Shown piece after piece: positions 1,410-28,178 of a DNA stretch of 28,357 nucleotides. The translations under genes were made by a program, and so were the position numbers. Source of the DNA: a virus (lineage: Duplodnaviria; Caudoviricetes); the IMG/VR virus record IMGVR_UViG_3300010366_000050, positions 1-28,357 of that record, one strand, 5' to 3'. The notes below the pieces were generated by a model, which made no database searches, had not been told where the DNA came from, and saw nothing but the letters and a program-made list of their open reading frames with translations. Every line of letters starts with the position of its first letter. The first letter of the stretch is position 1.

Positions 1410-2087
1410 ATGTACTTGGAGTCTACAGGCAGATGTAACGAACCCCGCGTCTGCGAATGCTGCGGAGTTGCATTCTATGCCAACAAAACGGAGGTTCGCT
1501 ATGGTCACGCCCGCTTCTGTAGTCGGTCGTGCGGCGCGCGATCCCCAAAGCGCAAGCAACGCGCGACCCGACCGTGCGCACTTTGCGGTACCGAATTTCG
1601 TATGCGCAAGAGCGCGGCGAAATTCTGTTCGCGCGAGTGCTCCGCGCGAAGTCAACAAGCGCGAAAGTGGTGTATCTGTGAGAGTTGTGGAAAGCCCTTC
1701 TGGGCACCGAAAGGCACTCCCCGGAAGTACTGTTCGCAGCGGTGCTACTTCCGCAATGTGGGCCGTGTGACACGCGAGTACGCGCGCCGGCGCTTTGAAC
1801 GCCGCGTGCGCCGCACGGACGGGTGCTGGACACTCAAGGGTGGGGTGAGCCTGTTTGGGTATGGACGTTTCTCGATCGACGGCAAGATCGAGCAGGCCCA
1901 CCGTGCATCGTTCATGTTGCATATGGGGCCGATTCCACCGGGCGCGCTCGTCTGCCACACGTGCGATAACCCACGCTGCGTTCGCCCTGACCACCTGTTC
2001 ATTGGAAGTCATCACGACAACATGCAGGACCGCATGCGCAAGGGCCGCTGGAAGTTAGGGCTGCAGCAGCTGCCGCTCGCGATGTAG
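1410..2087 (+). CDS. Free-standing HNH homing endonuclease with three N-terminal zinc-finger repeats
   Basis: 3x CxxCG..F....FC/YCSRxC-type repeats; GYG, AHR, VCHTCDNPRCVRPDHLFIGSHHDN (HNH_3 type); antisense to the surrounding operon. Confidence 0.9.
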   Translation: MYLESTGRCNEPRVCECCGVAFYANKTEVRYGHARFCSRSCGARSPKRKQRATRPCALCGTEFRMRKSAAKFCSRECSARSQQARKWCICESCGKPFWAPKGTPRKYCSQRCYFRNVGRVTREYARRRFERRVRRTDGCWTLKGGVSLFGYGRFSIDGKIEQAHRASFMLHMGPIPPGALVCHTCDNPRCVRPDHLFIGSHHDNMQDRMRKGRWKLGLQQLPLAM

Positions 2088-11458: not shown

Positions 11459-11959
11459 TCAACACAGCCCCATACGCACCGGCGTCCACTCGCGGGCGCG
11501 ACCCTGGGCTAACATCCAGGCCGCCGCCGCTCGTGCCGCGGACGGGTCGAAGACCGAGAGTCCCTGGCGGCCCTGCGGCGTCGACTTCCACGTCGACGGC
11601 AAAAATTGAAGCAAGCCCGCGGCGCCGCTCGAGCGGTTCACGGCGGTGGGGCTGCCGCCCGACTCGTAGTGAACCAGGCACTCGATGCGGCGGGCGAGTG
11701 CCGCCGACACGCCGGCTGGTGAGCCCGGCGTATCGACGGCCTGGCTGGGCGGTGACGGGGGAAGTTCGCCCATGGTCTGTAAGAGGTACTGCCGCGGCGG
11801 CACGCCCACCGTGGCCGCCGCGGCGCGCAACTGCTCCGGATCTTTGCCAGAGTCGGCGGCCAGTTGGGTGACGTCGTCCTCCGACGCCAGCGCGGCCTTC
11901 ACTACCGAGAGCAATGACATCGCCACGAGCGTCGCCAGCACCACCCGCCTCATAGGCAT
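11459..11959 (-). CDS. Secreted lytic transglycosylase / Rpf-like protein
   Basis: Signal peptide MRRVVLATLVAMSLLSVVKAALA; CLVHYESGG..AVN..GAAGLLQFLPSTW lysozyme-like motif. Confidence 0.8.
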   Translation of the reverse strand: MPMRRVVLATLVAMSLLSVVKAALASEDDVTQLAADSGKDPEQLRAAAATVGVPPRQYLLQTMGELPPSPPSQAVDTPGSPAGVSAALARRIECLVHYESGGSPTAVNRSSGAAGLLQFLPSTWKSTPQGRQGLSVFDPSAARAAAAWMLAQGRAREWTPVRMGLC

Positions 11960-12219
11960 CAGTACGGCAGATCCTCGTCGTCCGCTGGCACCGTGACCGC
12001 CGTCGTCGGCACATCCGACGGCGTCACCGCGTCCCGTACGCGCCACGCCGGCGACCTCGCCAACTCGGCATGCACCAAGAAACGCGCGTGCTCCATTGCT
12101 ATAGCCATCGGATCGAGTTCGCCGTAGGTCGTGGTCTCGCTCACTTCGAGCAGTACCTCAGCCGATTCGGTGCCGTAGTTGCCGTCGCTGACCTGTTTCC
12201 GAAATATCACGTGGCTCAT
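11959..12219 (-). CDS. Hypothetical protein with acidic SSB-like tail (DDEDLPY)
   Basis: MSHVIFRKQVSDGNYGTESAEV; coupled overlaps; GGAAGG RBS. Confidence 0.65.
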   Translation of the reverse strand: MSHVIFRKQVSDGNYGTESAEVLLEVSETTTYGELDPMAIAMEHARFLVHAELARSPAWRVRDAVTPSDVPTTAVTVPADDEDLPY

Positions 12220-12401
12220 GCGTCCGCCTTCCCACCCAAGCAATCGTGGCGACGGTTGGGCACGAGTTCGTCATGCTCTTTACACAGGAAGCGGTCACAT
12301 AAAACGCACCAGGTCTCGACGGCCCGATGGCAGTCGCCCTGCTCGCACACGTCGGGCACGTCCCGCTCGTCCGGGATCAGCGGCAACACCCCGTGGCTCA
12401 T
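12216..12401 (-). CDS. B-box-like zinc-finger protein
   Basis: CEQGDC..WCVLCDRFLCKEH..HDC. Confidence 0.6.
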   Translation of the reverse strand: MSHGVLPLIPDERDVPDVCEQGDCHRAVETWCVLCDRFLCKEHDELVPNRRHDCLGGKADA

Positions 12402-12544
12402 ATGCCGTTCCTAAACCACACCAGGACCTCGGCCGCCGTCAGCAGGAACGCGCACGCCAGCACCACCCGCAGCAGCAGCACGCGCGACCGCTGGCGCTCG
12501 TGCCAGGCCGCGTGGTCATGCAAGAACTCGTCGTCAGCCCGCAT
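12398..12544 (-). CDS. Small membrane protein (48 aa), not in ORF track
   Basis: MRADDEFLHDHAAWHERQRSRVLLLRVVLACAFLLTAAEVLVWFRNGI; overlaps at both ends; GGAGG RBS. Confidence 0.55.
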   Translation of the reverse strand: MRADDEFLHDHAAWHERQRSRVLLLRVVLACAFLLTAAEVLVWFRNGI

Positions 12545-12804
12545 CAGAACGCGGCCTCCTCTCGACTACGGAAGAACTGCTCGCGGTCGGCGTCCCACTG
12601 CATGCTCTGCAGCACTTCGGTCAGCCGCGCGAGCCGCTCGGGCAAGCCGGCGAAGTCGGCGCTCAGCGCGAAGCCATCACGCACGCCCGCTTCGTGGCCA
12701 CGCTCCCACGCCTCGCGCACCAGCGGGTCATCCAGGACGGACACGTCAGTGCTCTGGCGCTTGCGGACACTGCCGCGCCACGCGAAGAACGGATCCCCAC
12801 TCAC
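12544..12804 (-). CDS. Hypothetical protein
   Basis: 86 aa, GTGA overlap with the upstream Arc-like gene. Confidence 0.6.
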   Translation of the reverse strand: MSGDPFFAWRGSVRKRQSTDVSVLDDPLVREAWERGHEAGVRDGFALSADFAGLPERLARLTEVLQSMQWDADREQFFRSREEAAF

Positions 12805-12974
12805 GCGACCCGCTCCGTCTCCACCTCCGGGCAGGCGCGCTCGAGCAGAATGGCGGCCTGGTCGCGCCAGCCGCGCCGCTCGAGGGCGGCGAGGCGTTCG
12901 ATCGCTTTCCAGACACGCCGCGGCGCGTAGATGAGCTTCGCTTCAACTTGCTCGTGCGGGTCCAGCTCGGTCAC
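12801..12974 (-). CDS. Arc/Mnt-like ribbon-helix-helix regulator (57 aa), first gene of the leftward operon; not in ORF track
   Basis: MTELDPHEQVEAKLIYAPRRVWKAIERLAALERRGWRDQAAILLERACPEVETERVA; strand-P-helix-RR-helix pattern; GTG 6 nt after CAGACT. Confidence 0.6.
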   Translation of the reverse strand: MTELDPHEQVEAKLIYAPRRVWKAIERLAALERRGWRDQAAILLERACPEVETERVA

Positions 12975-12997
12975 GCGACCAGTCTGGAGGACGCGAG

Positions 12998-13029
12998 CGT
13001 CAAGCTAACAGTGCCGGAATGCGTCCAAT
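12998..13029 (-). repeat. Left copy of 32-bp inverted repeat (promoter-proximal box)
   Basis: cgtcaagctaacagtgccggaatgcgtccaat matches the reverse complement of 14316-14347 at 31/32. Confidence 0.95.
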
Positions 13030-13140
13030 GATGGCCGCGTGCCGGGCACCGCATGTTACTCTAGCGACACAGCGATCGCACCTGAGATGCACGCTAGGGT
13101 GCCTGTTCTGACGCCAGCGTCGTACGCCAATCTGACGGCG

Positions 13141-13350
13141 GTGCTCGTGCCGGGACTCAGAGCCGCGCGTCTCGAGCGAGCCCTCTCGCAAGAGTTGCTC
13201 GCCGAGCGCGCCGGCCTTGGCCGCAGGACGGTCAGCCGCGGCGAGAGTGGGCTGAACATCCGCGTGAGCAGCGTGCGCCGCCTGGCCGCTGCGCTGCGCG
13301 TCGCACCGCGACGCCTGCTGCAAGCGCCCACACCCAGCCCGAGCCACTAG
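13141..13350 (+). CDS. XRE/Cro-CI family HTH regulator
   Basis: LRAARLERALSQELLAERAGLGRRTVSRGESG..VRRLAAALRV; probable leaderless GTG 7 nt after CAATCT (longer starts possible). Confidence 0.85.
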   Translation: MLVPGLRAARLERALSQELLAERAGLGRRTVSRGESGLNIRVSSVRRLAAALRVAPRRLLQAPTPSPSH

Positions 13351-13563
13351 TGTCGTGCCGGCGTTTCTTTACAGTCCCTTCATACCGCGATAACTTGACT
13401 CATTCCTTGTCTTTTCTTTGGACGCTCCACTGCGGCACGGTAGCGTGAGGCCCGGCCACCTGCCGGTCGCCAGTACGACAGTCTTCCTCGGCTAGAAACC
13501 AGGCAGCCAACCCCTGGCGACGATCCGGGATTGGGGGTTTGGTTGGTGACAGGTAAGCCATCC

Positions 13564-14313
13564 ATGACGATCGAAGAATTGCTCGACCGCTACGAGTTGT
13601 ATGAGGCCACGCGGCGCGCCAGGCATGTCGTGCATCCCTCCAAAGCCGGCTTCGTTGACGGCTTCCCGGATGTCGGGCTGGGCAAGTCGAAACAGGCGCT
13701 GTACGACTACCTCAAGCGCTTCAACCTGCCCTGGCCCTTCCTGCCCGAAGATCCGACCGCGCTCGTCTTTGTCATCTTCGGCCAACCACCTTTCGACCTG
13801 ACCTGGGTCAGCCAATCCGTCGCCGACGCGCTCGGCTGCGACCGCGCGGACCTGGTCAATCACGACTCGATCCAGGCACTGCGTGCCGGCCGTCGCTGGA
13901 GTGACGCCAAACTTGCGCGGGTCCGTCGCCTGCGTGACGATCCGTCACTCGAGACCCTCTGCATCGAGCGCACCCATCTGGTCACCGCCGAGCGGCTGCA
14001 CCTGCCCGTCCGTCTGGAAGTCTGCTACACCGGCGCGCAGACCGACCGTTTCTACTTCAGGGGCGAGGTGCTCGGCGCGGCGTACGCCGCCCGCCAGCAG
14101 CCCGAGCTGTTCAATGTCTATCCGGACTTCGTCTATGAGATGCAGCCCCGCGACAGGACCGACCACCTGACCGAGCTCCACCAGGTCCCAGGGTACGAAG
14201 GCGCGCTGATCGCGCAGTTCACCCGTCTGCGCAACGACCCGGACTATCTGCGGAGTTTCATCGACAAGGCGATTGGCACCTATCGCCCGCCGGACCGGCT
14301 CGCCAGCGACTGA
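13564..14313 (+). CDS. Putative regulator with Fis-like HTH and PAS-like domain
   Basis: GLGKSKQALYDYLKRFNL resembles a Fis-type recognition helix; LTWVSQSVADALGCDRADLVNH and LVTAERLHLPVRLEV resemble PAS/PAC elements. Confidence 0.55.
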   Translation: MTIEELLDRYELYEATRRARHVVHPSKAGFVDGFPDVGLGKSKQALYDYLKRFNLPWPFLPEDPTALVFVIFGQPPFDLTWVSQSVADALGCDRADLVNHDSIQALRAGRRWSDAKLARVRRLRDDPSLETLCIERTHLVTAERLHLPVRLEVCYTGAQTDRFYFRGEVLGAAYAARQQPELFNVYPDFVYEMQPRDRTDHLTELHQVPGYEGALIAQFTRLRNDPDYLRSFIDKAIGTYRPPDRLASD

Positions 14314-14315
14314 AG

Positions 14316-14347
14316 ATTGGACGCATTCCGGCACTGTTACCTTGACG
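14316..14347 (+). repeat. Right copy of 32-bp inverted repeat
   Basis: attggacgcattccggcactgttaccttgacg, followed after 11 nt by CAGACT exactly as for the left copy. Confidence 0.95.
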
Positions 14348-14371
14348 GTCATACGCCGCAGACTCGTGCAC

Positions 14372-14551
14372 ATGCCCCCCGAGCCCGCACCGGACCCGCC
14401 GCGGCAAGCCGACGTTGAGTATGTCAGTCACTACGCCACCGAGGACGATCGCGTCTGCATCCAGGCCCTCTTGCTTCTTGCTGGCTATGGCGCCGCGCTC
14501 ACGCCGCCACCAGCCCGTCCGCTCCGACCAGCAGGCGATACAGCAGCGTGA
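14372..14551 (+). CDS. Small protein convergent with and overlapping the integrase 3' end; RDF candidate
   Basis: ATG 7 nt after CAGACT; MPPEPAPDPPRQADVEYVSHYATEDDRVCIQALLLLAGY...DTAA; function inferred only from context. Confidence 0.5.
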   Translation: MPPEPAPDPPRQADVEYVSHYATEDDRVCIQALLLLAGYGAALTPPPARPLRPAGDTAA

Positions 14552-16208
14552 TTGCATTGTTGTCACTAGTGGTGCCGTTAGTGGCAACAATGGCGGTGCT
14601 GCTACGCTCGCCGAAGTAGAAGTCGACGTCGATCGTGGCGTGCTTACGCCGCCGACCGTCCCTGTTCGCGCCCACGATCTCGGTGGTGACCACGATCCTC
14701 GCCACCAGGCGGGTGATGACCTGCCGCTTGCGCTCAACGTCGTTGGTTCGCGAAATCTCGTCGACGCTTTCCTGGACCTGCCGCAGCATCGTAGCCGCGC
14801 TGGTGAGCGCCCGCTCTTGCTCTTCGGCCAGCTCGCGTTCGTTGCGCATGCTGTCCAACTGAGCGCGCAGGGCCGCGGCTTCGGCGGTAATCACTTCGAG
14901 GTCCTCTTGCAATTCCGCAAACGTGATGAGCCCGCGGCGATTCTGCTCACGCGCGACCCTGCGCTCGCCCTCCTTCGCCGCGAGCGCACGGCGCAGCTCG
15001 GCCTCGTGCCGGGCGCGCTCCGCGACGGTGCCTAGACGCCTGCGCAGCTCGGCCTGGGCCATGCCGAGCGTCTGCTGCGGGTCAGCCGCGAAGTCCTTGA
15101 TCTTCGACCAGACGTAGTCCTCGAGCGGCAGTGCGTAGACCTGTTTCCCGATACACCGGTCCGCCGCATTGGGGTTGATGGTGCCGATCTGCGCGTTGCA
15201 GCGGTAATAGCCAACAGGAAAGCCGCGGGTGTGGTTGTACGTGTGGGCGTAGCCAGCGCCACAATTGCCACACCGCATCAGGCCGCGCAGCAGGTGCGTC
15301 TCGCGGGCGTTGCGTTGGCTGAGCGCCTTGTTGCGCTGCATGTTGCGATTGGCGAGCGCCCACGTTTGTTCGTCAACCAGCGCCGGCACCTCCCGGCGGA
15401 TCGTGCCCAACTTCGACTTGAACACATGCGTGCCCTTGTAGATTGGGTTCATGACCATTTGCCGAATCCGCGAAGGCAGCCAGGTCTTGCCGCGGTCCAC
15501 GACCTTGCCATTACCGTAGCGGCGCGCGGTGGAAACGCCGAGTGCGTTCAGGCGACGTGCCTCCGAGATCGTCGATGCGCCGTCGTACGCGAGGCGGTGA
15601 AAGACGCTCGCCGCGAGCTCGACCTCGACGAATTCGCCAGTCTTGCGCTCGCTAGGAATCAGGAAGCCCGAGCCTTTAGCCGCGGGCTCGATGTCATAAC
15701 CGAAGTTGACGGGGCCGCACGTCCAGTGCGAGCTGCGCACCTTCCGGTCGCGGCCTTTGGTCATTTCCTGCAGGATCGTCGCGCGGTGCAGGCGGGCCAC
15801 GCTGGCATGCATGTCGCGGACGAACTCGCCCTGGGGGCTGCTGTCGAATTGTTCGACCAGTGAAATCAGGGTGCAGTTGAGCGTGGCCAATGTCCGCATG
15901 GCGCAGGCATACACCCAGACGTCGCCGCGGGTGATGCGGCTCATGCGCGTGATGACCAGGACCGGGTTCAGGTTCGACATCGCCTGAATCGCATGGATCA
16001 TCTCCGTCGCTGCGGGCCGGTCTTCGAGCAGCAGCGTGCCGCTGGCGGGATCGTCCCAGAATTCGCCAGCGACCCATGGGTGGTGCTGGTCCTGCCAGTT
16101 GCGCAGGTCGAATTGCTGCGATTCGATCGTGCCGTCCTCGGCCTGATCGTCCGAGCTGACGCGCCCGTAGAAGAAGTGCGGGCGTTCCTCAAGCGGTACA
16201 CTGTGCAT
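14499..16208 (-). CDS. int: Large serine recombinase (integrase)
   Basis: YGRVSSDDQ catalytic Ser, SRITR, recombinase domain (FGY..NPIYKG), zinc ribbon LLRGLMRCGNCG..YYRC, coiled coil. Confidence 0.95.
   Translation of the reverse strand: MHSVPLEERPHFFYGRVSSDDQAEDGTIESQQFDLRNWQDQHHPWVAGEFWDDPASGTLLLEDRPAATEMIHAIQAMSNLNPVLVITRMSRITRGDVWVYACAMRTLATLNCTLISLVEQFDSSPQGEFVRDMHASVARLHRATILQEMTKGRDRKVRSSHWTCGPVNFGYDIEPAAKGSGFLIPSERKTGEFVEVELAASVFHRLAYDGASTISEARRLNALGVSTARRYGNGKVVDRGKTWLPSRIRQMVMNPIYKGTHVFKSKLGTIRREVPALVDEQTWALANRNMQRNKALSQRNARETHLLRGLMRCGNCGAGYAHTYNHTRGFPVGYYRCNAQIGTINPNAADRCIGKQVYALPLEDYVWSKIKDFAADPQQTLGMAQAELRRRLGTVAERARHEAELRRALAAKEGERRVAREQNRRGLITFAELQEDLEVITAEAAALRAQLDSMRNERELAEEQERALTSAATMLRQVQESVDEISRTNDVERKRQVITRLVARIVVTTEIVGANRDGRRRKHATIDVDFYFGERSSTAIVATNGTTSDNNAITLLYRLLVGADGLVAA
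14555..14592. other. 38-bp imperfect palindrome; candidate attP (or terminator of 14372..14551)
   Basis: cattgttgtcactagtgg-TG-ccgttagtggcaacaatg, 15/18 symmetric around a central dinucleotide. Confidence 0.45.
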
Positions 16209-16250
16209 TGCGGATCAATTCCTCTTTCCTACACTGCGGTTGATCTGCGC

Positions 16251-16285
16251 GAGCCCTGCGTCGTCTTCAGTTCGACGCAGGGCTC
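16251..16285. terminator. Perfect 13-bp stem hairpin between HTH gene and integrase
   Basis: gagccctgcgtcg-N9-cgacgcagggctc; no U-tract, so the terminator role is uncertain. Confidence 0.45.
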
Positions 16286-16299
16286 AATCGTTGCCGGGG

Positions 16300-16488
16300 T
16301 CAACGAAGCGCCTGGGGCTTGACGTTCAGTGCCTCGGCGAGCTTGCGCACCGTCGAGGGAATCGGGTTCGGCTCGCCCTGCTCAAGGCGAATGATGGTGG
16401 TCCGGGTGACGCCTGCGAGCTTGGCCAGGTCGTCCTGGGAGAGTGCGGCATTCAGGCGCAGGTCGCGCAGGCGAGAGAGCGGAGCCAT
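16300..16488 (-). CDS. XRE family HTH repressor (62 aa)
   Basis: LRDLRLNAALSQDDLAKLAGVTRTTIIRLEQGEPNPIPSTVRKLAEALNV; ATG 7 nt after TAACCT. Confidence 0.9.
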   Translation of the reverse strand: MAPLSRLRDLRLNAALSQDDLAKLAGVTRTTIIRLEQGEPNPIPSTVRKLAEALNVKPQALR

Positions 16489-16602
16489 CCTCGCAAGGTT
16501 ATACGAACGTCTGATAGATGTCTCGCCAGCGCCGGCGCCTAGTGGGTATCTCATGTCTGATTATTGTTGCATACATGTCCGTCGTGCGCTACTATTACGG
16601 GT
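16489..16602. promoter_or_regulatory. Divergent leaderless promoters with candidate operators
   Basis: Rightward TTGCAT(16567)-17 nt-TACTAT(16590)-7 nt-ATG; leftward GAGACA-17 nt-TAACCT-7 nt-ATG; related 15-mers at 16507 and 16553. Confidence 0.7.
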
Positions 16603-16887
16603 ATGGAAAGAGGAACCGCACTCCCCCGCTGGGCCAACGTTCGCGTGACCCTCGGCGACAAATCCACCCGCACCGGCCACGTGCTCGTCGACTCCGGCGA
16701 CCGCGTCATGGTCGAGTACACCACCCCCGCTGGCTTCTTCGCCGCTCGCAAGTTCGACCGCTCGGCCGTCGAGTTGCTGCCGACCACACTCTGCGGCACC
16801 CACGGCTCTCGGAATCGGGTCTGCGCCGCCGCCGCCGGCCACGTCGGCGAGCACAACTTTGTGATTCGCTCGGGCCGCGAGGACTGA
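16603..16887 (+). CDS. Hypothetical early protein (beta-rich N-terminus, C-terminal Cys/His motif)
   Basis: Start MERGTAL at the leaderless ATG; CG...C....GHVGEH. Confidence 0.7.
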   Translation: MERGTALPRWANVRVTLGDKSTRTGHVLVDSGDRVMVEYTTPAGFFAARKFDRSAVELLPTTLCGTHGSRNRVCAAAAGHVGEHNFVIRSGRED

Positions 16888-16890
16888 GCC

Positions 16891-17148
16891 ATGGCCATCC
16901 TCGTCAGCGCCACCGACCCGCGCGGCCCCAAAGCCGTCGCCCTCGCCACCAACGCCGGCCAGTGGCTGCGCTGCCGCCGCCGCGACGGCCGCAAGGCCTA
17001 CGGCATCCAGGGCAGCGATGGCGTGTACTACCTGACCACCCGCTCGTCCTGCACCTGCAAAGACTTCGAATACGGCCACGGCCGCGCCTGCAAGCACATG
17101 CTCGCCGTCGAGTTGCACTGCGAGCTCATGGCCGAGCAGGCCGCCTGA
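16891..17148 (+). CDS. SWIM zinc-finger protein
   Basis: SCTCKDF..ACKHMLAV; GAGGA RBS. Confidence 0.85.
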   Translation: MAILVSATDPRGPKAVALATNAGQWLRCRRRDGRKAYGIQGSDGVYYLTTRSSCTCKDFEYGHGRACKHMLAVELHCELMAEQAA

Positions 17149-17609
17149 TGGAACCACTGCAACTGCACATCGCCGCCAGCGCGTACTTCGCCTGGCGCCA
17201 GAGGTTCTGGGACAAGGTCTGGAAGACCGAGACCTGCTGGATCTGGCAAGGCGCACTGAGCAAGGCCGGGTATGGAACGTTCAACCTCGGTCCGCGGCGC
17301 GCGGGCTATGTGTTGGCACACCGCGCTGCGTATGAGCAGCTCGTCGGACCAATCCCAAACGACTTGCAGTTGGATCACCTGTGCCGCCAGCCCGCGTGTG
17401 TAAACCCAGCCCATCTCGAACCGGTCACCAGAAGCGTCAATGCCCGTCGTGGGTTCGAGGCGGTGACCGGTGGCCACTGCCGCCGGGGTCACCCGCTCAC
17501 GCCCGAGAACGTCTACTGGCGAAAGGATCGGCCTGGTCGGTGGGCATGTCGTGCTTGTAACCGTGAGTGCCAGCGAGCTCGATACCAAGCGAAGCGAGGA
17601 CAAGCATGA
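17148..17609 (+). CDS. HNH endonuclease
   Basis: RFWDKV..CWIWQG..GYG..AHR..LDHLCRQPACVNPAHLEPVT..N; HCRRGH..CRAC. Confidence 0.9.
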   Translation: MEPLQLHIAASAYFAWRQRFWDKVWKTETCWIWQGALSKAGYGTFNLGPRRAGYVLAHRAAYEQLVGPIPNDLQLDHLCRQPACVNPAHLEPVTRSVNARRGFEAVTGGHCRRGHPLTPENVYWRKDRPGRWACRACNRECQRARYQAKRGQA

Positions 17610-26554: not shown

Positions 26555-27143
26555 TCAGCCGATGCCCCTGGCGTATACGCCGAACGTCGGCCGCATCATC
26601 TGGTGGCCGAAGATAACCTCACTGGCCAGCTTCCAGGTGAAGAAGTCGATGTCGTAGAACAGGTGCATCTTGGGGCTGCGCTGCACGATCAGCGCAAGCG
26701 CCTCGCGCTGGAAGGCGAAGTTGTTGGCCTGGCCACCCGCCGGCTTGACCAGGTTGGTGGTGACGAACAGGTTCATGCCGTACATGTCGCCGAGACTGCC
26801 GGTGACGGCCGGCTTCGGGTTGCCGACGTACAGCGCGTTCGACCAGCGGTCGAGGCCGATTTTGTTGGCCTTCTCCGCCGGGCTCAGAATGAGAAAACGA
26901 TCGTCGGCCGGCGCGTCGGCGTCGTCGAGATACTGGTTGGAACGAATGACATCGACGTCGGCAAGCGCGGTGCCGAGCGTGCCGACGGTCTGGGTAAAGC
27001 CGGCCACGTCGGCCGCCAGTTTCGAGTCGATGTCGCGGGCGATGGCATGGCCCATCTTCATCTGGTACTCGTTCTGCACGTCGACGATTGACTGGACCTT
27101 GACGATGTCCTCAATGCCGACGGCTGCGTAATCCCATATGTTG
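26555..27143 (-). CDS. Major capsid protein, exon 2
   Basis: NIWDYAAVGIEDI..MGHAIARDID..DAPADDRFLILSP..GSLGDMYGMNLFVT..VIFG (HK97-fold, P22 coat-like pattern). Confidence 0.85.
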
Positions 27144-27915
27144 CAGCAACCCGGAGCTTTCGCTCCGGACCGGACTATCTCTTCATTCCGGCAGGCTGAC
27201 CTGTCGGAAGCGGGGCGCTGGTGCGGGCGTATCGTTGGGCGTCTCACCCGCTAGTCTCTGAACCTTCTCGACTACTCGGCCATTGGCCGGCCCCGTCGAG
27301 CTTGGCTGCGGATTCCCGTGCATTCGATGGCGACGAAGGAATAAGGCAATCTCGCGTTGCTCGTCCGTGTACCGCAGATGCGGATCGCGTGACTGGGCAA
27401 TCTCGATAAAGCGACTGAGTGCCGCGGCCTGGTCGTGTTTGGTCACGAGATACGGCAGGATTGCGTCCAGTACCCGACGCGCTCCGACAAAAGCCATCAC
27501 AGATATTTGGTACTGCGGTCGTTTGCCGAGACGCGTGGGATCCAAGTCCGTCGCTTTCAGGAAATTGTGTTTCACCCCTATCGACGTCAGGAGACTGGAT
27601 ACGTGATCGCAGGTAGGAACATCCGTATGCGTGAGCGCGATCAAGGGGCGATAGCGTTCTGGCTCTCGCTCGTGATTTCGCAGTCGGCGCGTGTTGGGTC
27701 CGTCCGGCTTCCACTTCCAAACACTCCGATAGAGGGAGATCGTTCCTTCGCCGTCCAGGAAGCCAGCCAGCCACGCCGCATCGAGTGGATTCACTGCTAT
27801 GAATGTGCAGCATGTTGGTTGTCATCCTGTTGATGTTTAGGGTTCCCGACAGTTCACCCCGTGTTTTCACTCTCGCCGTCAGGCGGCGAGGCGTGCCCCC
27901 AACATCTCTCGATCA
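27144..27915 (-). ncRNA. Group I intron (772 nt) in the major capsid gene
   Basis: P GAACUGUCGGGAAC, Q AAUCCGCAGCCAAG, R GUUCAGAGACUA, S AAGAGAUAGUCC, P3 CGGGGUG/CGCCCCG, P9 GAAA hairpin, U before the 5' site and terminal G. Confidence 0.9.
27183..27794 (-). CDS. Intron-encoded LAGLIDADG homing endonuclease (single motif)
   Basis: AAWLAGFLDGEGTI; LDAILPYLVTKHDQA. Confidence 0.9.
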   Translation of the reverse strand: MNPLDAAWLAGFLDGEGTISLYRSVWKWKPDGPNTRRLRNHEREPERYRPLIALTHTDVPTCDHVSSLLTSIGVKHNFLKATDLDPTRLGKRPQYQISVMAFVGARRVLDAILPYLVTKHDQAAALSRFIEIAQSRDPHLRYTDEQREIALFLRRHRMHGNPQPSSTGPANGRVVEKVQRLAGETPNDTPAPAPRFRQVSLPE

Positions 27916-28178
27916 AGGGTAATGGTGGTAGCTGTTTCAGCCACTGTCTCGTAGACGATGGCCGTGTTCTCGGTTTTCGCACGCGCGGCGACGTTGCCGA
28001 CGGAGGCAACCTTGACGGTCCTGCCCACACTTGCGTCATCTTCAAAACCTCGATTGACGCATTTGGCAAACACTAAATTAGACTCTGTTGCTCGCAGTAC
28101 CTGCTTGCTCCAGATGTCCGGCGAGAAAACGCCACCAGCGATAGTTTGATCGACAAATTCGCTTGCCCCAGTGGCCAC
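27916..28178 (-). CDS. Major capsid protein, exon 1 (spliced product 283 aa)
   Basis: FSPDIWSKQVL..GRTVKV..TITL; AAAGGA RBS; joins exon 2 in frame. Confidence 0.85.

Follow-up and report, generated by a model that had tools for sequence, protein, structure and literature searches.

It is an open question by which mechanisms the temperate phages of uncultured soil bacteria enter induction, in many cases in the absence of DNA damage. A 28,357-nt phage contig (IMG/VR record IMGVR_UViG_3300010366_000050, Caudoviricetes) was analyzed over its full length and is referred to as the window in the following. The window carries genes for a terminase, a major capsid protein, a replication initiator and a large serine integrase, and two nearly identical boxes in inverted orientation enclose a cassette of two genes, one for an XRE-family helix-turn-helix (HTH) protein and one for a protein with a PAS domain, called the regulator here. 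The original prediction for this locus, made from the sequence of the window, had proposed a regulator site shared by the leftward lytic operon and excision or, alternatively, a segment inverted by the adjacent recombinase. Comparative evidence (the box varies with the regulator, a small open reading frame (ORF) varies with the integrase, and a third box copy precedes the regulator gene) supports the former and not the inversion alternative. It is likely that the box copies are binding sites for the PAS regulator, which would activate the lytic operon, the gene of a probable excision factor and its own gene. As far as can be judged from the sequences, the regulatory design is real and conserved.

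The inverted repeat of 31/32 bp described in the original prediction was confirmed. The left box, read on the minus strand, deviates from the right box, read on the plus strand, at one of 32 positions, and a pattern search allowing up to three mismatches found these two outer boxes and no others in the window (0 in 100 shuffles). The longest inverted repeat in the window (52 nt, 81%) is built around these two boxes. As predicted, CAGACT follows exactly 11 nt outside each outer box, with a start codon after another 6 nt on the left (GTG 12974) and 7 nt on the right (ATG 14372), both starts being leaderless. The XRE gene and an HTH-PAS-like gene had been described as the only content between the repeats; both are present, but a third box, which differs from each outer copy at 12 positions and has CACGGT (13436-13441) 11 nt beyond it, had been omitted. 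The -10 hexamer of a promoter of the form TTTACA-17-TAAC(T/G)T overlaps this third box in six of seven close phages, the promoter being degenerate in L005. Two other interpretations of the boxes were discarded: the would-be last T of an extended -10 within the box is a T in 3 of 14 copies, and, regarding transposon ends, no target duplication was seen by eye and the targets lie outside the arms in a fixed register.

Searches of viral contigs with an exact 21-mer of the box (0 matches) and locus scans with single proteins (0 loci) yielded no relatives. A first search with the 249-aa form of the regulator gave four homologues, and a profile search gave 52 matches, some of them long multi-PAS proteins. 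The first set consisted of nine aligned loci, of which L001 is the window and L003, L004 and L006 are one phage, and contained six distinct relatives with 38-76% identity. In all eight relative loci the box pair is retained at the same positions, with conserved blocks (ATTGGACnCAT and CTkTTaGTTrGACG) and variable spacers, followed by 11 variable bases and CAsACT. A matrix was built from the 14 outer copies, whose own scores are consequently circular; its best non-seed match in the window and the eight other loci was the third copy before the PAS gene, with CAnnnT in register.

Using the integrase and two neighboring genes as scan queries, 105 further loci were obtained (114 in total), with a PAS regulator in 26 and a serine integrase in 80 of them. 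Regions with a minus-strand serine integrase and more than 1.8 kb to its left were kept, loci without such an integrase being excluded from the counts, and L092 was added by hand; 73 regions were reduced to 42 distinct ones. A PAS regulator is encoded in 13 of these and a coiled-coil protein, whose C-terminal helical domain ends in WPP, in 15; the other 14 have a different protein. By scan, 28 of the 42 regions have CAGACT or CACACT 6-7 nt ahead of a small ORF that converges on the integrase gene, and the hexamer was placed by hand in seven more. When the 36 nt upstream of the hexamer served as query, the best other match anywhere in the locus was, for 32 of 35 regions, an oppositely oriented copy located 0.4-2.6 kb further left; the paired box sought in related phage genomes is hence found across the family. 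These copies mostly carry nAnnnT in register, although the hexamer lay outside the query. The boxes of different regulator clades differ, being TGCAC repeated three times with a 12-nt period in L038 and L047, TTCCTGATT..CTTTTTAG in L022 and L024, ATTGGATGGTT..CTGTTTC in L073 and GGACA..TGTCC in the coiled-coil class. The third box accompanies the regulator gene, including cases in which the regulator is encoded on the minus strand and the box is found there as well. Variants of the layout were also observed. About 1.8 kb of extra DNA is located between the XRE gene and the right box in L036 (5324-7701), which indicates that the cassette can carry cargo, and in L025 (6780-8535) the CACACT promoter, a 50-aa ORF and the serine integrase are co-directional, these being convergent in the others.

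Which of the neighboring genes the box belongs to was addressed in a set of 31 phages, L092 and any region lacking a regulator or promoter assignment being excluded. In this set, box likeness followed regulator likeness (Mantel, Spearman 0.59, p 0.001; Pearson 0.88) and not integrase likeness (Spearman -0.03, p 0.69), and the small ORF followed the integrase (Spearman 0.24, p 0.001; Pearson 0.91) and not the regulator (Spearman 0.04, p 0.18). Since the compared pairs share ancestry and are not independent, these p values overstate independence, and the argument is therefore the double dissociation of box with regulator and small ORF with integrase. For 18 pairs with like integrases and unlike regulators, box likeness was 0.16 against a background of 0.17, and that of the small ORFs 0.45 against 0.08. 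Phage L038, for instance, has an integrase 76% identical to that of the window and a homolog of the 59-aa ORF found there, together with a regulator of only 29% identity and a different box. The partial correlation of box and regulator was 0.71 with the XRE protein held fixed, as compared with 0.15 for box and XRE protein with the regulator held fixed (n = 25), and L092 has kept three boxes without an XRE gene. At the level of sequence, the box tracks the enclosed regulator and not the integrase.

The position of the boxes relative to the hexamers is informative as to their possible mode of action. If CAGACT is taken as the -10 of a leaderless promoter, the box extends from about -55 to -24 and includes the -35 position, which is occupied by GTTAGC or GTTACC. 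The distance from hexamer to start codon is that of leaderless messages, and it is mirrored by TAACCT-7-ATG and TACTAT-7-ATG in the cI/cro-like region of the same phage. Candidate hexamers of cI/cro-like leaderless promoters are mostly of the type TAnnnT (30 of 40 leftward and 27 of 42 rightward, chance matches included), whereas the box promoters begin with C (CAnnnT) and have no -35, across regulator classes, and all of them were missed by a scan for consensus sigma70 promoters. Owing to the missing -35 and the C at -12, the outer promoters should be weak unaided. By analogy, these two properties mark promoters that depend on an activator, as the SetCD promoters do, and the boxes are indeed located on a non-consensus -35 or immediately before it and keep a fixed distance from a poor -10, with the transcription start sites predicted from the sequence. 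The SetCD box is described, in the accessible part of the source, as compensating for a missing -35 and preceding xis (PMC4344509).

The 59-aa ORF behind the right box overlaps the 3' end of the integrase gene, as had been claimed, and a homolog search with it yielded no match. In L092 and L083, which have a tyrosine integrase, the ORF after CAGACT belongs to HTH_17, which we take to be the usual excisionase fold; L092 contains the complete order of box, CAGACT, HTH_17 ORF and tyrosine integrase. Beside serine integrases, unrelated ORFs of 47-90 aa occupy this slot, as would be expected because recombination directionality factors (RDFs) of serine integrases share no motif or fold according to the accessible text of PMC12286644. 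The integrase of the window has Resolvase, Recombinase and Zn-ribbon domains, and the 59-aa ORF is cognate to it by covariation and adjoins a candidate attP; it is thus the probable directionality factor of this enzyme. At the candidate attP, 15 of 22 arm positions of the dyad are paired, which ranks within the top 0.02% of the window. Among 41 serine-integrase regions, 22 have, among the 230 positions tested, a dyad that ranks in the top 0.1% of the locus, no more than about 8 being expected, and 21 of these 22 lie 31-103 nt inside the integrase 3' end, with sequences that by eye match the integrase type. Contigs of one sequencing run, possibly that from which the window derives, contained no loose end at the attP-like dyad, so that no integrated form was seen in them. 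If this dyad is attP, integration would replace the last ~24 integrase codons, and cofactor cassette and integrase would come to lie at opposite prophage ends. With the promoter rule, the excision cofactor and the attP belonging to a given serine integrase can be pointed out; locating them is usually difficult, as RDFs have no fold in common (PMC12286644). At the other end of the gene, a stretch of 60 bp at the integrase start (16197-16256; L002 3946-4005; L003 12681-12740) is 97% identical between phages whose integrases are 27-28% identical, and is likely a joint of module exchange or a conserved promoter/ribosome-binding site.

GTG 13546 is the probable start of the regulator (255 aa) and is preferred because relatives begin with MTGKP. 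An AlphaFold model based on 43 sequences (predicted local distance difference test, pLDDT, 86.5) has three N-terminal helices, a PAS core and two C-terminal helices. The PAS domain is recognized by Foldseek (198 matches at E<=0.001) and by VIA (Z 12.8, root mean square deviation 2.5, 100 residues aligned), while the Pfam scan missed it and assigned no family to the regulator. The earlier designation as HTH-PAS-like consequently holds for the PAS fold, the N-terminal HTH being without a structural match; the N-terminal part is likely a DNA-binding domain, and its HTH identity is unproven. A single domain linking all regulator classes was considered and holds only partly, as profile links reached 90% between the PAS and L021 classes, 73% between the L021 and coiled-coil classes, 31% between the PAS and coiled-coil classes and below 8% for the others. 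The motifs AIGTYxPP and FNV are common to otherwise unlike regulator classes (C-terminus of the window regulator; L012 7184-7777, L080 5655-6356, L055 1027-1590, L081 6436-7128) and are possibly involved in oligomerization or polymerase contact. In the 100-nt leader of the regulator gene (13447-13551), the GGGGG preceding the GTG is able to base-pair with C-rich sequence further upstream; the consensus fold of this hairpin in six phages is weak (-4.9 kcal/mol).

Taken as an activator, the regulator would be made at a low level in the lysogen from TTTACA-17-TAACTT. Once active, it would bind the internal box, shut this promoter and open the CACGGT promoter, which would constitute a feedback; at the left box it would switch on the ribbon-helix-helix (RHH)-like gene and subsequently the replication initiator, terminase, portal and capsid genes, and at the right box the directionality factor, upon which the integrase would excise the prophage. 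Each box would replace the missing -35 and offset the C in place of T at -12 of a leaderless promoter (class II activation), and its 12-nt repeat (C at 7, 19 and 31; explicit as the three TGCAC units of L038 and L047) could be read by head-to-tail protomers. The least certain step is the input, where the PAS domain might replace control by LexA. The sequence GAAC-N4-GTTC is a LexA site of the Gram-positive type according to the accessible text of PMC3323433. It occurs exactly in 15 of 15 coiled-coil, 0 of 13 PAS and 5 of 14 other cassettes and elsewhere at 0.0125 per kb, the 15/15 count having been made after the motif was first noticed among coiled-coil cassettes; either class may consist of a single clade. 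With one mismatch allowed, the motif was absent from the window at 12900-14500 and 16200-16700, motif absence not being a phenotype. Its presence in all coiled-coil cassettes implies that this regulator rises on DNA damage, which fits an activator of induction. A LexA-type box and a PAS domain in one slot suggest swappable inputs, with PAS supplying another input where the motif is absent; PAS may also merely substitute for the coiled coil as dimerizer, with control coming from the XRE protein or the leader.

Tentatively, and with somewhat less than even confidence, the family of uncultured ~39-kb soil phages can be pictured as deciding lysis by a plug-in activator cassette and not by a cleavable repressor, the cassette consisting of an unclassified DNA-binding domain, three boxes and an input part, exchanged as a unit between fixed CAnACT promoters. 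The coiled-coil version would listen to host LexA, while the PAS version would have dropped LexA, sense a small molecule or redox cue and fire excision and replication together; the same anatomy would read out dozens of cognate integrase/RDF/attP sets. The family represents a natural experiment with constant outputs and varied inputs (LexA-type box or PAS domain), and it offers several orthogonal regulator-box pairs that are testable in reporter strains without the host.

An inverted repeat of 31/32 identity beside a recombinase raises the possibility of an invertible 1.35-kb segment, for which the repeats would serve the serine recombinase as crossover sites. In DNA-invertase phase switches such as Hin/hix and Fim, a regulatory segment close to a recombinase is likewise bordered by inverted repeats. 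The arms of L073 are also near-identical (35/37), and spacer variants seem common to left and right copies of different phages, with some exchange between copies. Unlike the sites of those switches, the boxes of the window do not track the recombinase, being present even beside the tyrosine integrase of L092, have no proper dyad (at best 10-11 of 22, a separate attP-like dyad existing by the integrase) and enclose the interior in a single orientation in 13 of 13 PAS cassettes. The arms moreover differ at 5-10 of 32 positions in six close relatives. When both orientations were looked for, contigs of one run (11500-17500, depth about 65) contained no strand-changing joint, contigs being prone to drop rare forms. 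An apparent joint of opposite strands with a loose end at 14347 was rejected as a sign of inversion, as it is the left copy of the same 2708-nt contig beyond a short stretch. Because the box follows the regulator and not the integrase, which has its own candidate attP, inversion is extremely unlikely. The near-identity of the arms is an accident of this lineage and not the conserved feature, and likely results from recent homogenization. It would also be conceivable that box and CAGACT together are recognized as a promoter by an alternative sigma factor, from host or phage, with no need for an activator, given that CAnACT is constant across all regulator classes; as the upstream box changes fully with the regulator while the hexamer stays, and the regulator has a PAS fold and not that of sigma domain 2, this is very improbable.

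More weight is due to the two explanations that assign the boxes another protein role. The boxes overlap the polymerase footprint, and in the case of the internal copy also the -10 of a promoter close to consensus, so they might be operators at which a PAS-protein repressor holds the lytic operon and excision gene off until released by a ligand, and the covariation is equally compatible with activation and repression. Outer promoters that have no -35 and a C at -12, unlike the TAnnnT promoters of the phage, speak against this, as does the coiled-coil-class regulator behind a LexA-type box, since a repressor of lysis would then rise upon DNA damage; repression is considered unlikely. The boxes might also be read by the XRE protein, alone or as obligatory partner. 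In 12 of 13 PAS phages its gene is part of the cassette, box and XRE likeness correlate (Pearson 0.74), and a two-factor requirement has precedent in the Aeromonas XRE-LuxR module, as far as the available text describes it (PMC10432266). This correlation largely vanishes with the regulator held fixed, as given above, and 13 of the 42 family cassette regions have no XRE match, including paired-box L092, L055, L062, L070, L088 and L094, which makes recognition by the XRE protein a clearly unlikely explanation; a role as co-activator or repressor is possible.

In addition to the shared ancestry of the compared pairs and the post hoc motif count, several observations weigh against activation by the PAS regulator. 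Regulator, XRE gene and boxes are linked, and shared descent can yield covariation. The paired-box test failed in 3 of 35 regions (L017, L080, L087), and the right promoter was unplaced in 7 of 42 regions and hand-placed in another seven. The N-terminal domain folded alone (pLDDT 66) had no solved-fold match above Z 2.7 and no Pfam family, and the L021 and L070 domains to which its profile is linked (hhalign 90%) have sub-threshold Pfam HTH matches only. No conserved His or Cys that could serve as PAS ligand residue was found in the family alignment, in which only P63 and V73 are nearly invariant. Finally, one box pair was found per phage locus, which implies that late genes need read-through or another regulator.

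By analogy, the cassette works like a master activator of the SetCD/AcaCD type and resembles swappable transcription factor modules (PMC10432266), but it is a member of neither, as far as the accessible parts of these sources allow a comparison. As in the SXT/R391 integrative and conjugative elements (ICEs), one activator box lies at or just upstream of a missing -35 with a poor -10; in the ICEs it recurs ahead of transfer/replication genes and xis, xis and int are convergent and induction proceeds via activation (PMC4344509, accessible text). A box before an excision-factor gene convergent on the integrase is found in L092, while the role of the window ORF is deduced from covariation. In contrast to the two-protein, FlhCD-like SetCD (PMC4344509), the window has a single gene with a PAS domain and a box before this gene itself, and a check of the regulator for FlhCD-like subunits gave no Pfam match, PAS as main domain and an unmatched N-terminal part. 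Furthermore, SetCD is released by the RecA-cleavable cI-like SetR (PMC4344509), whereas both XRE proteins of the window are shorter than 90 aa with HTH matches only and no peptidase domain, the targets are leaderless and the element is a phage and not an ICE. With the transcription factor-small ORF (TF-smORF) modules (Silpe et al. 2023), VqmA(Phage)-Qtip and the Aeromonas XRE-LuxR module the cassette has in common a swappable phage-specific transcription factor in a fixed slot, an XRE gene beside a sensor regulator and a counter-oriented small gene, here the RHH-like 57-aa gene, and it may also share self-activation and an SOS-independent input with them. Those modules, in the portion of PMC10432266 available, belong to proteobacterial phages that are linear and plasmid-like, and their effect is mediated by a small antirepressor (of cI in the TF-smORF modules); the window regulator appears to drive lytic operon and integrase cofactor directly, and SOS-linked and sensor-type versions interchange in one slot here. 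In SPbeta (sprA/sprB/attP; PMC8270828), serine integrase and small cofactor gene also flank attP on the circular genome and excision is timed by cofactor transcription, yet sprB uses host sigma promoters where the cofactor promoter here bears the box of a phage regulator, and the attP-like dyad here lies within the last integrase codons. FG214 (bioRxiv 10.64898/2026.03.15.711900, accessible text) combines PAS and a helical DNA-binding part in one chain, as the regulator probably does, and its PAS is the top Foldseek match to the regulator, not separable from other PAS domains; at 12% identity, with no conserved heme ligand in the window family and FG214 not being a phage protein, homology is established for PAS only. 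A literature search comprising few subscription papers and no supplements found no account of this layout.

Table 1. Features of the cassette and its surroundings, with positions in the window.
Feature	Position	Strand	Remark
57-aa first gene of leftward operon, RHH-like	12801-12974	-	leaderless GTG start
CAGACT, putative -10 hexamer of leftward promoter	12981-12986	-	register kept in 7/7 close phages
Left box	12998-13029	-	putative activator site, about -55 to -24
XRE-family HTH gene	13087-13350	+	possible co-regulator; Pfam HTH_3; start ATG 13087 or GTG 13141
Sigma70-like promoter TTTACA-17-TAACTT	13368-13396	+	putative basal promoter of regulator; -10 overlaps third box
Third (internal) box	13393-13424	+	putative autoregulation site; top non-seed matrix match
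Regulator, putative master activator	13546-14313	+	three-helix N-terminal domain, PAS, helical tail
Regulator domains			N-terminal ~residues 8-65 (likely DNA-binding), PAS ~70-177, helical tail
Right box	14316-14347	+	putative activator site
CAGACT, putative -10 hexamer of right promoter	14359-14364	+	family hexamer scan
59-aa ORF, candidate RDF	14372-14551	+	tracks integrase type, not regulator
Large serine integrase	14499-16208	-	convergent on 59-aa ORF; Pfam, PHROG 95
Candidate attP	14551-14596		dyad centered on TG 14573-14574, within integrase 3' end
Divergent cI/cro-like region	16300-16610		separate from cassette; canonical TAnnnT contrast
Short XRE gene, leftward			TAACCT, 7 nt, ATG 16488
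Rightward promoter TTGCAT-17-TACTAT			7 nt, ATG 16603

The frame of the XRE gene of the cassette is open from ATG 13087. By eye, the extended -10-like sequence TGTTACTCT (13054-13062) is directed towards this gene and stands back to back to the left box; CCTGT(T/A)CTGAC (13103-13113) is conserved at the DNA level in 7 of 7 close phages; these may be the XRE promoter and operator. On the other side, the leftward operon comprises the RHH-like gene and the replication initiator, terminase, portal and capsid genes on one strand, and a homolog or analog of the 57-aa first gene is present 3' of the left box in 25 aligned phages. The description of this gene as Arc-like agrees with its strand-helix-helix pattern, but only one of the 25 members reaches RHH_5 (E 0.015) and the PDB gave nothing useful.

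Regarding the host, no relative of the PAS regulator was found in GTDB or in cultured phages. A neighboring gene matched one metagenome-assembled genome (MAG) titled Actinomycetota (63%), four Chloroflexota (42-46%) and two weak others, and the cassette was absent from the five Actinomycetota and Chloroflexota genomes. Locus L108 (7600-10260), from a MAG titled Actinomycetota, is a related prophage end with a tyrosine integrase by a tRNA-like 3' half and two XRE genes, no cassette being found here. A minor contig (depth 3.5 vs about 65-69) coincides with the window over the right box and the first part of the 59-aa ORF (14321-14391), diverges beyond this point and represents a relative or variant that co-occurs. 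HNH endonucleases are encoded by two free-standing genes, at 1410-2087 (+) and ~17148-17609 (+), the second being absent from this place in L002 and L003. The major capsid gene (26555-28178, minus strand) is in two pieces, both PHROG 267, around a 203-aa endonuclease-like ORF (PHROG 5046), and was probably split by an inserted element, an intron or intein-like, that encodes a homing endonuclease.

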